This document shows, piece after piece, positions 25,274-36,827 of a stretch of DNA of 43,895 nucleotides; the stretch's first letter is position 1; every line of letters begins with the position of its first letter. Made by a program: the position numbers and the translations under genes. The stretch comes from a virus. Below the pieces are notes generated by a model. That model was not told the origin of the DNA, did not search any database, and worked only from the letters and a program-made list of their open reading frames with translations. Location: UHGV virus genome UHGV-0356621; one strand, written 5' to 3'.

Positions 25274-25710
25274 GACAGGAACAGAGCGCGCTCCGCCTCC
25301 CGGCGACGTGTCAGCCCATTCAGCACCTTCCCACCAGCTTTATTCCAGCGCAGGAACTCATCGGCTGCACCAGCGTAATCACCAGCGTTGAGTTTTCGCA
25401 ATAGCGTAGATGTCGACAATGACCTAGCACCGAGGTTGTACGTGAACGACACCAGAGCATCGAATTGCCCCTGAGTCAGACCGACTTTAACCAGGCGGGA
25501 CACGTCACTTTCGTAGCTGACCAGTCCGGTTTTCAGCAGGCGATCCGCAGTTTCCTGCTTAATCGTCATCCCGGCGCGGATCGGTTTACCGTCGACAGGC
25601 TGAGTCCAGCCATAGCCGATCGTCCACACTCCGACGCTGTCCTGGTAGGCAGTGAGCTTGCAACCTTCGAACTGCTTGATCAGGGCAATGCCTTTATCAC
25701 TGGTTTGCAT
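25270..25710 (-). CDS. Endolysin, GH24 (T4/P22-type) lysozyme
   Basis: [36 protein letters not shown]... carries the catalytic E-8x-D-5x-T pattern. GGGAG SD is present. Confidence 0.9.
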
Positions 25711-26017
25711 CGTCAACTCCCGCCTTTTTTGCTGCAAGTTTTTTAATCAGATTGCCGATCGAATCGGTGCCGATGTATCCAATAAAGACGCTGGCTATGT
25801 AGGCGAGGTTGCTGCTCAGGCCGATAAAGTCCAGAAAGTCACGAACGAACCAGGCAATCATCGCGCACATCAGCGCATCAATTAGCGTTTTTGTTACCGC
25901 GCCGCCGTTATAGCGACCACGCAGATACGCCATGATAAAAGCCAGCATTGCACCAATACCCTGCTCCTTGGCGGCAAGTAGCGCAGCGATGAAATCTTGT
26001 TTGTATGGCATTTTCAT
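25697..26017 (-). CDS. Class I holin (lambda S / P22 gp13-like) with dual-start motif
   Basis: [39 protein letters not shown]...[12 protein letters not shown] closely matches P22 gp13 as I recall it. Met1-Lys2-Met3 is the holin/antiholin dual start, and GGAGG SD is present. Confidence 0.85.
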
Positions 26018-26124
26018 AGGCCTCACCTCCGATTTTCCGGATGGTGCTGTGTGTGTTTGTAGGGGAAAGGCCGTCAGACTCTGATTGCTACATGGCATCT
26101 GAAAATGATATCTGCGGCCTGCAA

Positions 26125-26149
26125 TAAAAAAGCCCACGGCGCGGTGGGC
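26125..26149 (-). terminator. Second intrinsic terminator between the tRNA and the holin
   Basis: On the minus strand: GCCCAC-cgcgcc-GTGGGC followed by TTTTTT. Confidence 0.7.
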
Positions 26150-26199
26150 AATAGAGGGTAGTGCGTTGAGCTTTTGCTCTTATGGTCCTGGTAGGTATT

Positions 26200-26274
26200 T
26201 GGCGGGACAGGAAGGATTCGAACCTTCGACCATTCGGTTAACAGCCGAACGCACAACCGCTGTGCTTCTGACCC
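26200..26274 (-). tRNA. Phage-encoded tRNA-Asn (anticodon GUU), atypical
   Basis: Hand-folded cloverleaf. The acceptor stem is GGGUCAG/CUGUCCC with a U4-U68 mismatch. The D arm is GCAC-AGCGGUU-GUGC, the anticodon arm UUCGG-CUGUUAA-CCGAA, the variable loop 5 nt, and the T arm GAAGG-UUCGAAU-CCUUC. G73 and CCA are encoded. Position 8 is A rather than U. Confidence 0.75.
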
Positions 26275-26279
26275 TGAAA

Positions 26280-26307
26280 CGAAAAAGCCCCGCACGATGG
26301 CGGGGCT
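26280..26307 (-). terminator. tR'-like intrinsic terminator about 65 nt downstream of Q
   Basis: On the minus strand: AGCCCCGC-catcgt-GCGGGGCT followed by TTTTTC. This is the position of the Q-overridden terminator of lambdoid late operons. Confidence 0.8.
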
Positions 26308-26371
26308 TGGAATTTATTCATGTTACACACAACAATGGCAACATATACGAATTAGTTTGCTCATTTGTTCA

Positions 26372-26869
26372 TTAAATTGCAAGCACGTTGTGTGATTTAT
26401 TTGCAATTTTCCTCACATTTTCGCGATCGTTAAACGCATTTTGAAGCGGTTGGTATAAACAGAACAATGAAGCATTGATTATTTGCTTCACCTCTCTACG
26501 GATTGTCGAGATGCTTGGGTGTTTGTACTGATTGCCGCCACGCGTCTTCATAAGGCGAGGCTTACTTACTGCATGCTGCCATGATGCAATTCGGATCTCG
26601 CTGGAGTTGCAGACGTAGTAGGCGAAGATAACCCGCCAGGCATTTTCATCCACATTCTTCAGATAGTGACGAATGACAGCATCAATGAGCATCCCGTCAT
26701 CATCACTACATACCGGTCGTGATGCTTGCTGGGGCTCGACGGTAGCCATGAATCTGGCAATCATGTTGATCATCGCTTTATCAATCTTGCCGGTCTGGCA
26801 CCATGCGCCCCACAACTGGAGCCACTGGTCTACCCATTGATGCTGGTCGTTGGTTAATTCCAGTTTCAT
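26372..26869 (-). CDS. Q: Late-gene antiterminator Q
   Basis: 165 aa. WLQLWGAWCQTGK...CSDDDGMLIDAVIRHYLK...FAYYV matches the Phage_antitermQ family pattern (from memory). It is the last gene before the terminator, tRNA and lysis genes. Confidence 0.75.
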   Translation of the reverse strand: MKLELTNDQHQWVDQWLQLWGAWCQTGKIDKAMINMIARFMATVEPQQASRPVCSDDDGMLIDAVIRHYLKNVDENAWRVIFAYYVCNSSEIRIASWQHAVSKPRLMKTRGGNQYKHPSISTIRREVKQIINASLFCLYQPLQNAFNDRENVRKIANKSHNVLAI

Positions 26870-26985
26870 TATGCGGCTTCCTTCTGTGGCTGGTTGGTTT
26901 TGGTCTGGCTGTGCTTTGCTACTGGCGGCATGCTGGCGCGCTTAACGCTTTCTGCCTGGTACTGGAGGAGGTCGGCGTGGTTCAT
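26869..26985 (-). CDS. 38-aa ORF bridging HNH stop and Q start (not in the ORF track)
   Basis: MNHADLLQYQAESVKRASMPPVAKHSQTKTNQPQKEAA. Its ATG overlaps the HNH stop (ATGA) and its TAA overlaps the Q ATG (TAATG). The only support is this exact coupling. Confidence 0.3.
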   Translation of the reverse strand: MNHADLLQYQAESVKRASMPPVAKHSQTKTNQPQKEAA

Positions 26986-27623
26986 GCGGACTCCTTCTGC
27001 TTTGGTCCGCGATATTCACCATACAGAGGTGCTCTTCCTCTTGGCCTGGTATGCCTGTGGGTTACTTTGGGAGAAAAAAGCGCATCCTCTACATTCATTC
27101 CATTTTTTAGTCGACGCTTGATGGATGTTTCTGATACTGAAACGCGAGGATCCCTTGACCATTCTGTGGCGGTTTTCGTTTCGCCATTAAAAGTTATGGC
27201 TGTGCGTCCTTTTTTTGTGTGCTCAGGGATATGCACTCGAGATCGCATGACATTACACGCCCTGCACAGCACCCTAAGATTTGAGTCCGCATTGTTATCA
27301 ACAACCTCATCAATGTGATCAATATGCGCGGTTTTCCATGTGACCTCCTTGCCGCATTTTTCGCATGGTGGAAGTGTTTCTCCATAACGGTCGTAAACAA
27401 CTTTTCGGTGCTCATATACGCAACCATTCGCCATTGATAGTGGGTGATCAGGAATTTTGAGCATTTGATATCCTTTCGCATTTTTATGCCTGAATTTCCC
27501 TTTACCGTTTTTTGTGAGTTCGTAGGTCCCGTAGCGCATCATTCGGAAGTAGTGCATTTGACAGATACCCTTCCCTGGGTAGTGTTTGCATTCACGATCA
27601 CAACCTTCAACTTTGCATTTCAT
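26982..27623 (-). CDS. Free-standing HNH (homing-type) endonuclease
   Basis: An N-terminal zinc-ribbon-like CxxC...C...H, the HNH core VYEHRKVV...CEKCGKEV...AHIDHIDEVVDNNADSNLRVLCRACN, and a C-terminal helix-turn-helix tail (TATEWSRDPRVSVSETSIKRRLKNGMNVEDAL). Confidence 0.8.
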   Translation of the reverse strand: MKCKVEGCDRECKHYPGKGICQMHYFRMMRYGTYELTKNGKGKFRHKNAKGYQMLKIPDHPLSMANGCVYEHRKVVYDRYGETLPPCEKCGKEVTWKTAHIDHIDEVVDNNADSNLRVLCRACNVMRSRVHIPEHTKKGRTAITFNGETKTATEWSRDPRVSVSETSIKRRLKNGMNVEDALFSPKVTHRHTRPRGRAPLYGEYRGPKQKESA

Positions 27624-35862: not shown

Positions 35863-36036
35863 ATGGATAATCAGGATAATGAGTTAAGAAAGGTTGTTCA
35901 GGAACTTGCTGATGAAGAAGGCATCAGCTTTTCCGATGCCCTAGATGTTTCGATTAAAGCGCTGCGTTATGAGGTAGAGCGCAGAAAATCGTTTAACGGT
36001 GAAGCTGCTTGTGATGGCTCTGCAATTACTTCTTAG
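35863..36036 (+). CDS. 57-aa acidic hypothetical protein (not in the ORF track)
   Basis: MDNQDNELRKVVQELADEEGISFSDALDVSIKALRYEVERRKSFNGEAACDGSAITS. It sits in an AT-rich segment, has a weak SD, and its 3' end overlaps the convergent gene by 11 nt. Confidence 0.3.
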   Translation: MDNQDNELRKVVQELADEEGISFSDALDVSIKALRYEVERRKSFNGEAACDGSAITS

Positions 36037-36304
36037 CCAAGTACCAAGAGGTGTCTGCGGCTTCGGAAACCAGTACGTAATAGCTTTGCTTTACACTACT
36101 AGCTATACCTCTGACTTCCTCTCTAACGTTATATGCAGTTGATGTTTTTACGGTTGTATATTCAGCTGTTGGGAGGTTAAACCAAGTGCCATTACCATCC
36201 TGTATCTCACGCGAATAACCCTTTGCTTTCATCTTTTCATGAAGATTTTCATAGTCTTCAGAATCAGCGCCGCGCAACTCAACTCGAACAATATATCTTG
36301 CCAT
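36026..36304 (-). CDS. 92-aa hypothetical protein, antisense to the early-left operon
   Basis: MARYIVRVELRGADSEDYENLHEKMKAKGYSREIQDG... shows an alternating beta/alpha (ferredoxin-like) pattern and is AT-rich. The long track ORF (to 36595) has a Cys/Ser-rich, implausible extension. Confidence 0.5.
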   Translation of the reverse strand: MARYIVRVELRGADSEDYENLHEKMKAKGYSREIQDGNGTWFNLPTAEYTTVKTSTAYNVREEVRGIASSVKQSYYVLVSEAADTSWYLAKK

Positions 36305-36319
36305 AAGAAGATTCCTATA

Positions 36320-36364
36320 TTGACTGTGGAATGAGCAACATATCAGTTTCCTTTGACTGTGGAA
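36320..36364. repeat. Direct repeat TTGACTGTGGAA (36320-36331 and 36353-36364), period 33 bp
   Basis: Read directly. Similarity extends to ...GAGCAA / AGCAAA. The repeat sits 16-60 nt upstream of the 92-aa gene start. Confidence 0.85.
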
Positions 36365-36530
36365 AGCAAAGGGACACGGGCCGGGCGTGGATAAAAATCC
36401 CGGCAATAACTGGAATGTTTTGTAGTGCAGTGAATTGCAGCTGCATCGACGGCAACCGGAAGATAAGCACCCGGCGCTGCACCACAAAGCATTTCTCCCG
36501 CATCCGCGGGTAACGACAGAGGGTAAAAGG

Positions 36531-36827
36531 ATGATCGACGACATCAAGCGCATCGACTCAATGATAAATGTGCTTCGAAATATGAAACAGGACATTAAGC
36601 GCCAGCAGAAACTAAGTGAAATAAACAGCTTAGACCTTACGCCAAAGCAAGCTCAAAAGCGCAATGCCGATGCTGGCTGGATTGCGATGGAACAGATTAA
36701 GCGCCGGCATGAGCTGCACGCTCTGTCAGTTGAGCTTGGGTTCGCTGAACGCCGGGAAAGTTATGCTCCATTTGAATTAACTGACGGGTGGCACCGATTC
36801 AACCACAAGCCGCGCGAACCTCAATAG
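36531..36827 (+). CDS. Hypothetical early protein
   Basis: 98 aa starting MIDDIKRIDSMINVLRNMKQDIKRQQK, with a GAGGGTAAAAGG SD region. The internal ATG of the track ORF is used. Confidence 0.45.
   Translation: MIDDIKRIDSMINVLRNMKQDIKRQQKLSEINSLDLTPKQAQKRNADAGWIAMEQIKRRHELHALSVELGFAERRESYAPFELTDGWHRFNHKPREPQ

Follow-up and report, generated by a model that had tools for sequence, protein, structure and literature searches.

A conserved phage-lineage tRNA-Asn(GUU) gene in the Q-to-holin interval of lambdoid prophages and its possible role as a nuclease-resistant spare

Organization of the locus

The genome analyzed here, UHGV virus genome UHGV-0356621, is a stretch of 43,895 nucleotides (nt), referred to below as the window, in which a tRNA-Asn(GUU) gene lies between the gene for the Q antiterminator and that for the holin. 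ARAGORN identifies this tRNA-Asn(gtt) as the sole tRNA of the 43.9 kb, on the minus strand at 26200-26274 (75 nt, CCA encoded), the same coordinates at which an earlier note, made from the sequence alone, had placed a cloverleaf of this identity, and Rfam RF00005 matches 26203-26274 on that strand at 63.9 bits (gathering score 29, E = 1e-11). Upstream of it, the gene at 26372-26869 (minus strand) encodes a 165-amino acid antiterminator of the Q21 family, with a match to phrog_943 (E = 4.5e-70) and a phmmer match to the Q21 structures PDB 6P18/6JNX (E = 4.3e-46). Downstream, the first protein gene of the late operon (25697-26017, minus strand; phrog_126, E = 8.5e-39) encodes a holin of the lambda S type and is followed by endolysin, spanin and terminase genes, in agreement with the location between Q and the holin that had been proposed.

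The two intrinsic terminators that had been claimed to bracket the tRNA are both detected by a terminator scan. The first, which is tR'-like, occupies 26275-26308 on the minus strand and consists of a 9-base pair (bp) stem (26308-26285, 7 GC pairs) with a 6-nt loop and the U-rich tail UUUUCGUUUCA, which extends to position 1 of the tRNA; its hairpin appears in both the minimum free energy and the centroid folds. The second (26122-26149, minus strand), also supported by the fold, has a stem of 6 bp (26149-26132, 5 GC pairs), a 6-nt loop and the tail UUUUUUAUU, and is separated from the encoded CCA by a 50-nt spacer (26150-26199, minus strand).

Strict sigma-70 scans detected no PR' late promoter, and the candidate at 26354-26382 (minus strand) comes from a relaxed reading supported by conservation. 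It comprises a putative -35 element, TTGCAA (26382-26377), a 17-nt spacer and a putative -10 element, CAAACT (26359-26354), with 7 of 12 consensus matches under the relaxed criteria. Sister loci with the same type of Q retain the -35 element and present CAATAT, CATTAT, CAGAAT or CAAAAT at -10, A2 and T6 being constant. Such a promoter would imply a leader of about 65-70 nt that ends at the first terminator. No promoter for the tRNA itself was found by scan, and since the gene starts only about 10 nt past the terminator stem, leaving no room for one, its transcription would depend almost entirely on Q-modified RNA polymerase that has started at PR' and passed the terminator. The tRNA would then be released from the late transcript by RNase P and 3' trimming. 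In E. coli, the identity elements of tRNA-Asn for the class II asparaginyl-tRNA synthetase (AsnRS) are G34, U35, U36 and the discriminator G73. The anticodon loop C32-U33-G34-U35-U36-A37-A38 and G73 are the same in the window tRNA as in E. coli asnT, so the host AsnRS would be expected to charge it through G34-U35-U36 and G73, providing the phage with a private Asn-decoding tRNA for late protein synthesis.

A comparable architecture is known in lambdoid Shiga toxin (Stx) phages, as the earlier note had pointed out. The record of the Stx2 phage 933W (NC_000924), like the window a lambdoid phage of E. coli with tRNAs between Q and its terminator(s) and the first late protein genes, shows the analogous order of Q, pR', qut, terminators, ileZ-argN-argO, terminator and stx2. 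The two loci differ in that in 933W the last terminator is separated from the first tRNA by about 160 nt that contain an annotated putative tRNA promoter (pT), where the window type has 7-11 nt and no room for a promoter, and in that the 933W tRNAs (Ile, Arg and Arg) are readers of rare codons, whereas that of the window is specific for Asn.

The tRNA-Asn gene and its lineage

The gene encodes acceptor strands GGGUCAG and CUGUCCC (G1-C72, G2-C71, G3-C70, U4·U69, C5-G68, A6-U67 and G7-C66), AA at positions 8 and 9, a D stem GCAC/GUGC with the 7-nt loop AGCGGUU (8 nt in host asnT and 8-10 nt in relatives), a single G, an anticodon stem UUCGG/CCGAA around the loop CUGUUAA, a variable segment UGGUC, a T stem GAAGG/CCUUC with the loop UUCGAAU and, finally, G73 and CCA. 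Among the tertiary positions, A14, G18-G19 and the T loop are canonical, position 8 is A rather than U and position 21 is U rather than A. The G73, the encoded CCA, the A8 and the short D loop described previously are thus all present; so is the reported U-U mismatch of the acceptor stem, although its number (U68) was a linear position and the pair is U4·U69 in standard numbering.

At first sight U4·U69, A8 and the short D loop seem aberrant, and they might be taken as marks of a decayed, non-functional pseudogene. Scoring by tRNA predictors, which the earlier note had proposed as a check, goes the other way: ARAGORN calls a tRNA-Asn, and the RF00005 score of 63.9 bits is within the range of functional tRNAs, compared with 72.6 for host asnT, 64.9 for glyT, 53.4 for tyrU and 55.4 for the tRNA-Asn of phage T5, which is functional in vivo and scores below the window tRNA. 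Moreover, the nearest relatives recovered by distant BLAST searches are tRNA-Asn genes of other phages, not host tRNAs, with identities of 95% (Citrobacter phage Omnitron), 87% (Aeromonas phage AhSzq-1) and 82% (APT65), followed by 80% (Salmonella phage pSal-SNUABM-01), 78% (Vibrio phage X1) and 76% (Erwinia phage phiEa21-4). All seven aligned members of this lineage share GGGU at 1-4, A8-A9 and G73-CCA; in each, A14 and U21 border the D stem, which reads GCAC/GUGC except in Vibrio X1 (GCAU/AUGC). A8 and U21 occur together in the seven sequences, where they permit an A14-U21 pair, in place of the canonical U8 and A21; A8 is found in the tRNA-Thr of T5 as well. At 4:69, four lineage members have U·G and the other three (window, Omnitron and Erwinia) U·U, a regular U-A pair being confined to T5 and E. 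coli. Over nine tRNA-Asn sequences, 92.9% of the cells in the predicted stems are paired, with compensatory changes in 17 of 22 pairs, against 39-46% paired in a control with slid partners, so that the inferred cloverleaf lies far beyond chance expectation. Judged from this alignment, A8, the weak 4:69 pair and the short D loop are traits of a tRNA-Asn lineage restricted to phages, rather than signs of defect or decoy function.

Two further observations concern the relatives. The basal pair of the anticodon stem, U27-A43 in the window, is a G27·A43 mismatch in most lineage members. The relative from Erwinia phage phiEa21-4 (locus L144, 301-376), which many records leave without annotation, would have three successive U·U pairs in its acceptor stem (4:69, 5:68 and 6:67).

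Sequence collections were scanned for exact matches to a 33-nt anchor taken from these two arms, anticodon and T, and the tRNA was found in at least 120 IMG/VR contigs; the copy and array counts given here and below (134, 130, 126 and 98) are among the matches listed, a sample that is not unbiased. Base-for-base identity with the window tRNA is seen in 110 of the 134 full copies, none of the 134 repairs 4:69 and none is further decayed. One IMG/VR copy (L119) carries six substitutions grouped in the T stem and the 3' strand of the acceptor (…AG..A.G.GA…), a pattern more suggestive of a junction, recombinant or truncated, than of point mutation.

Given its score, covariation and conservation, the window element is an intact, well-conserved tRNA-Asn(GUU) gene of phage type and not a pseudogene. 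Together with decay we considered the possibility that the tRNA replaces a host tRNA-Asn gene disrupted by integration, a form of tRNA-dependent lysogeny that, according to PMC10865867, is documented in mycobacteriophages. No asnT fragment, other tRNA or RNA-family match was found near the integrase end of the window, and tRNA-dependent lysogeny or an att-site remnant was rejected as an explanation on that ground. With a score within the host and T5 range, A8/U21 and the weak 4:69 found throughout the lineage, and copies that are so uniform, this pair of explanations is highly improbable.

A mobile terminator and tRNA cassette

The tRNA is widely distributed. Prophage carriers are found in at least 14 species of Enterobacterales besides E. 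coli, including members of Serratia, Symbiopectobacterium, Cedecea, Atlantibacter, Enterobacter, Lelliottia and Citrobacter, and the gene is present in phage HK639 and in Klebsiella, Enterobacter and Citrobacter phages. A 221-nt cassette query matched 84 of 5426 E. coli genomes, any match being counted, some of them to the downstream spacer only. The copy in HK639 (2827-2901), unannotated in HM208537 and NC_016158, is 100% identical to that of the window. Identical 75-nt genes are annotated in the GenBank/RefSeq records of the Klebsiella phages vB_Kpn_Chronis, GZ7, RCIP0034 and ST11-VIM1phi8.1 and, by the Prokaryotic Genome Annotation Pipeline (PGAP), in E. coli prophages, in each case at the window location, with the antiterminator on one side and the lysis genes on the other; these copies are known as annotations only, and no functional study of this tRNA was found in the searchable literature. 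The gene itself is hence already known by annotation, its architecture resembles that of the 933W cluster and the function proposed below resembles that of T5 and phage 21 tRNAs.

A hairpin followed by a T-run ends 7-11 nt before G1 of the tRNA in all 130 related loci that have sufficient upstream sequence, in spite of the 46 distinct hairpin sequences involved, and 84 of 126 cassettes have a terminator-like hairpin within 250 nt of the end of their last tRNA, most commonly at about 55 nt. The terminator-tRNA-terminator layout is a conserved one, and the view of the earlier note that this is a real tRNA-Asn within a Q-dependent late leader is supported. The cassette flanks, on the other hand, vary greatly: 74 different sequences occur upstream and 75 downstream. 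A Q gene lies upstream of the hairpin in the large majority of 98 loci, and these genes belong to four unrelated Q families (phrog_304, 943, 127 and 753). The tRNA-Asn is first in every array and heads a multi-tRNA array in 87 of the 126. The gene stands alone in 39 loci, as it does in the window, and is followed by Thr(UGU) in 32, by Arg(UCU) in 30, by Gly(UCC) and Thr in 10 and by other combinations in 15. Its commonest partner is Thr(UGU), present in 51 of the 126 arrays and missing from the window. The tRNA-Asn is therefore the constant first gene of a mobile cassette, composed of a terminator and one or more tRNAs, that occupies the interval between Q and the lysis genes in lambdoid phages and prophages of the Enterobacterales.

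The edges of the tRNA are also the edges of shared sequence. Homology to HK639 covers Q, the terminator and the tRNA at 99.3% DNA identity and ends at 26199, and homology to the Klebsiella phages is restricted to about 26290-26197. Conversely, a prophage of E. coli 730V1 (locus L146) shares the sequence of the window from the CCA/AAUACC junction (L146 1500-1503), exactly where the post-tRNA spacer begins, through the spacer, the second terminator and the holin gene, and carries unrelated sequence and no tRNA upstream of it. Since blocks of homology begin and end at the tRNA edges, the tRNA ends act as mosaic junctions.

Just past the tRNA-Asn of HK639, at 2906-2982 of NC_016158, lies a second "tRNA" that is chimeric: the 5' half corresponds to the tRNA-Gly(UCC) that phages carry in sister cassettes, and everything from the anticodon loop to the 3' end is identical to E. 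coli glyT. Its acceptor strands are unpaired and ARAGORN makes no call. The chimera looks like a product of recombination between a phage and a host tRNA.

These data raise the question of whether the element is maintained for its ends rather than for its decoding capacity, that is, as an RNase P site that severs the terminator leader from the late mRNA, as a stretch for recombination between modules, or as both, with decoding being secondary. The fixed spacing from the terminator, the homology breakpoints at both edges and the HK639 chimera, which shows that tRNA genes recombine here, would all fit such a role. Identity and tertiary positions are, however, conserved almost perfectly, and compensatory changes occur in distant relatives from the tRNA clusters of lytic phages, which argues for selection on tRNA function itself; besides, this junction is without a tRNA in many lambdoids, lambda, SEN34 and L146 included. 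We thus regard a purely structural, processing or linker role as improbable.

Codon demand

The most ordinary role for a late tRNA would be to raise tRNA-Asn capacity for the abundant, Asn-rich virion proteins, with no relation to nucleases. The late genes of the window contain 50.6 Asn codons per 1000, as opposed to 36.1 in those of lambda and 37.6 over 50 kb of E. coli sequence; the genes downstream of the cassette in carriers have a median of 43.8, a modest enrichment for the group, and the position of the tRNA implies its co-expression with them. In addition, the A-ending codons decoded by the array partners, Arg(UCU), Gly(UCC) and Thr(UGU), are used more often by these phages than in the sample of the host (per 1000, AGA 3.6 vs 1.2, GGA 10.3 vs 6.0 and ACA 13.6 vs 5.4). 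Against this, AAC and AAU are common codons for which the host has four tRNA gene copies, and AAC is preferred in the phage as in the host (AAU fraction 0.39 vs 0.37). Carriers span a range of 32 to 51 Asn codons per 1000. SEN34, with a late module 89% identical to that of the window and 47.4 Asn codons per 1000, has no tRNA, and HK97, which reaches 50.0 per 1000, also lacks this tRNA, as it is not among the BLAST matches. Asn demand does not predict carriage of the tRNA, and demand as a driver is weakened by these two phages, which combine high Asn use with the lack of this gene. A plain boost in supply would also leave unexplained why a divergent sequence of phage lineage is nearly invariant across host genera. 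It is a possibility to be taken seriously, albeit a rather unlikely one, and the earlier suggestion that the tRNA does not simply supplement codon usage seems reasonable, inasmuch as AAC and AAU are not rare and carriage does not track Asn demand.

Possible relationship to tRNA-cleaving defense systems

The alternative put forward in the earlier note was a nuclease-resistant or decoy tRNA-Asn, with colicin E5-type enzymes as the model. Colicin E5 recognizes U33-Q34/U35 in the anticodon loop (PMC1635277). The loop CUGUUAA is unchanged from that of host asnT and the U-Q/U site is intact, which speaks against resistance of the E5 type; evasion at the anticodon loop of colicin E5 or PrrC-type nucleases, on the model of PMC10264068, was rejected for the same reason. 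The broader idea of evasion receives circumstantial support, because the tRNA is devoid of the published determinants of three nucleases that act outside the anticodon loop, namely AriB of PARIS and P2 Old, both of which cleave host tRNA-Asn(GUU) within the anticodon stem, and CdiA-CT(EC869).

AriB cuts the E. coli tRNAs Lys(UUU), Thr(UGU) and Asn(GUU) between positions 40 and 41, beside U36-A-A-U39, and its cleavage is abolished by U39->A, inhibited by A41->C and impaired by U16->C (PMC12409363). Host asnT reads UAAUCC at 36-41 and has U16, whereas the window tRNA reads UAACCG and has C16 (U39->C, C41->G and U16->C). P2 Old cleaves thrU fastest and Asn(GUU) too, at a paired CNG motif at 28-30/40-42 (PMC12445682). 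This motif is C28-G-G/C40-C-G in host asnT; the window tRNA has U28 and A42, so that the motif is shifted by 1 bp and C28NG30/C40NG42 is not found at the host positions. Finally, CdiA-CT(EC869) cuts the acceptor stem of tRNA-Asn and needs G73 and a weak U1-A72 pair, a G1-C72 variant being poorly cut (PMC9071432). Host asnT has U1-A72, and the window tRNA has G1-C72 with G73 as in the host. On sequence grounds, the window tRNA, which shares its anticodon with the host tRNA-Asn(GUU) cleaved by both AriB and P2 Old, appears to keep what AsnRS needs and to replace every determinant that those three nucleases read. The main type of Thr(UGU) partner in sister arrays has G39 and U41, where the host has U39 and A41.

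Two precedents can be found among phage tRNAs. The Lys, Thr and Asn tRNAs of T5 together neutralize PARIS, and a resistant tRNA-Lys is required for escape (PMC12409363). The T5 tRNA-Asn resembles that of the window in its anticodon, G1-C72, G73 and CCA, and neither has the host U39 (UAAGUU in T5, UAACCG in the window). It differs in lineage, with U8, a D loop of 10 nt and mispairing in the anticodon stem, and in setting: the lytic phage T5 encodes about 24 tRNAs, which have promoters of their own and include the Lys and Thr partners needed to escape PARIS, both of which the window lacks. The T5 tRNA, furthermore, has been tested experimentally. In turn, the tRNA-Thr(UGU) of the lambdoid phage 21 protects against P2 Old, and a rescue screen yielded only Thr(UGU) tRNAs (PMC12445682). 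Phage 21 is closer to the window in being a temperate lambdoid phage, to whose Q family the Q of the window belongs, but its tRNA carries Thr and that of the window Asn, and the window has no Thr tRNA. A comparison of the Thr(UGU) partner of sister cassettes with that of phage 21 matched no phage 21 record in the phage collection.

On this basis it may be postulated that the tRNA is a cleavage-resistant spare for the host tRNA-Asn, a reading that we favor tentatively and would stop somewhat short of calling probable. The tRNA would retain only what AsnRS and the ribosome require and would dispense with the host features read by nucleases that act outside the anticodon loop, among them Toprim nucleases of the OLD family (PARIS AriB, P2 Old) and enzymes that, like CdiA-CT(EC869), cut the acceptor stem. 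It would usually work with array partners like tRNA-Thr(UGU), a partner that the window does not have.

Several considerations weigh against a resistant spare. Every stem of the tRNA differs from its host counterpart, and differences at 39, 41, 16, 28/42 and 1/72 would be expected of any foreign tRNA-Asn, for which reason the changes in the determinants are permissive and not diagnostic. The window has a single tRNA, for Asn, and with neither Lys nor Thr(UGU) beside it the cassette cannot defeat the characterized PARIS or P2 Old alone. Lys(UUU), the main target of AriB, occurs in none of the 126 arrays. The main Thr(UGU) partner and the Gly(UCC) partner retain the CNG motif at 28-30/40-42, and the Arg(UCU) and Gly(UCC) partners are classic rare-codon tRNAs. 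To our knowledge, no phage-defense nuclease with a preference for tRNA-Asn has been described. Among the other nucleases considered as candidates and set aside, HepS targets Thr, Ile and Ser tRNAs, bacterial Schlafen nucleases target Lys, Ala and Met tRNAs, and phage tRNA-Asn gave no rescue from PrrC170, so that none of them points to Asn. Lastly, the late genes of the window are rich in Asn codons (50.6 per 1000 against about 37 in lambda and E. coli).

A more specific form of the resistant-spare reading would take the whole cassette as a dedicated counter-defense module, directed at an uncharacterized nuclease of the Enterobacterales that primarily targets tRNA-Asn and might be a PARIS/OLD variant or an acceptor-stem tRNase. 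The core of the lineage (A8, A14-U21, the weak 4:69 pair, G1-C72, C16 and C39) would then be adapted to hide the tRNA from such an enzyme while preserving its recognition by AsnRS. We consider this unlikely, if worth stating. What calls for an explanation in any case is the combination of one sequence extremely conserved across genera, invariably flush with a Q-controlled terminator, and its lineage-specific A8/U21 core.

The use of tRNA spares against tRNA-cutting immunity has been shown mainly for large lytic phages (T5 and T4-like), with one lambdoid case, that of the phage 21 tRNA-Thr against P2 Old. If this widespread and nearly invariant cassette did act in this manner, a compact anti-defense module under Q control would be present in small temperate phages that infect E. 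coli, Klebsiella and Enterobacter, with relevance to the competition between prophages (P2/P4 versus lambdoids) and to the host range of phages used in therapy. P2 Old is the classic anti-lambda system. Should the tRNA merely be a supply tRNA, the finding would be an ordinary one.

Genomic context of the cassette

The window is essentially one mosaic prophage, with a phi80/HK225-like early region that contains the integrase and an Omnitron/SEN34-like late region for a sheathed tail. The holin gene directly downstream of the cassette starts with M-K-M (codons at 26015-26017 and 26009-26011, minus strand), as in lambda S107/S105, which implies that the same dual-start holin/antiholin timing device is probably present there.

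Self-immunity to a tRNase encoded by the prophage itself was rejected as an explanation for the tRNA, since no known tRNA-targeting system was identified in the subset of accessory open reading frames (ORFs) scanned with PADLOC, PHROGs and Pfam, nor was a Pfam Gam domain. A 189-amino acid ORF in the immunity/early region (36026-36595, minus strand) has no PADLOC match, matches phrog_8894, of unknown function, and gives a sub-threshold Pfam match to the GhoS endoribonuclease antitoxin (20.6 bits versus a cut-off of 21, E = 4e-4).

In the window, an HNH endonuclease gene (26982-27623, minus strand) lies directly upstream of Q. Six sister loci (e.g. L020) have an HNH gene between Q and the tRNA cassette, and the tRNA region of T5 is likewise rich in HNH genes; homing endonucleases may be linked to tRNA cassettes.

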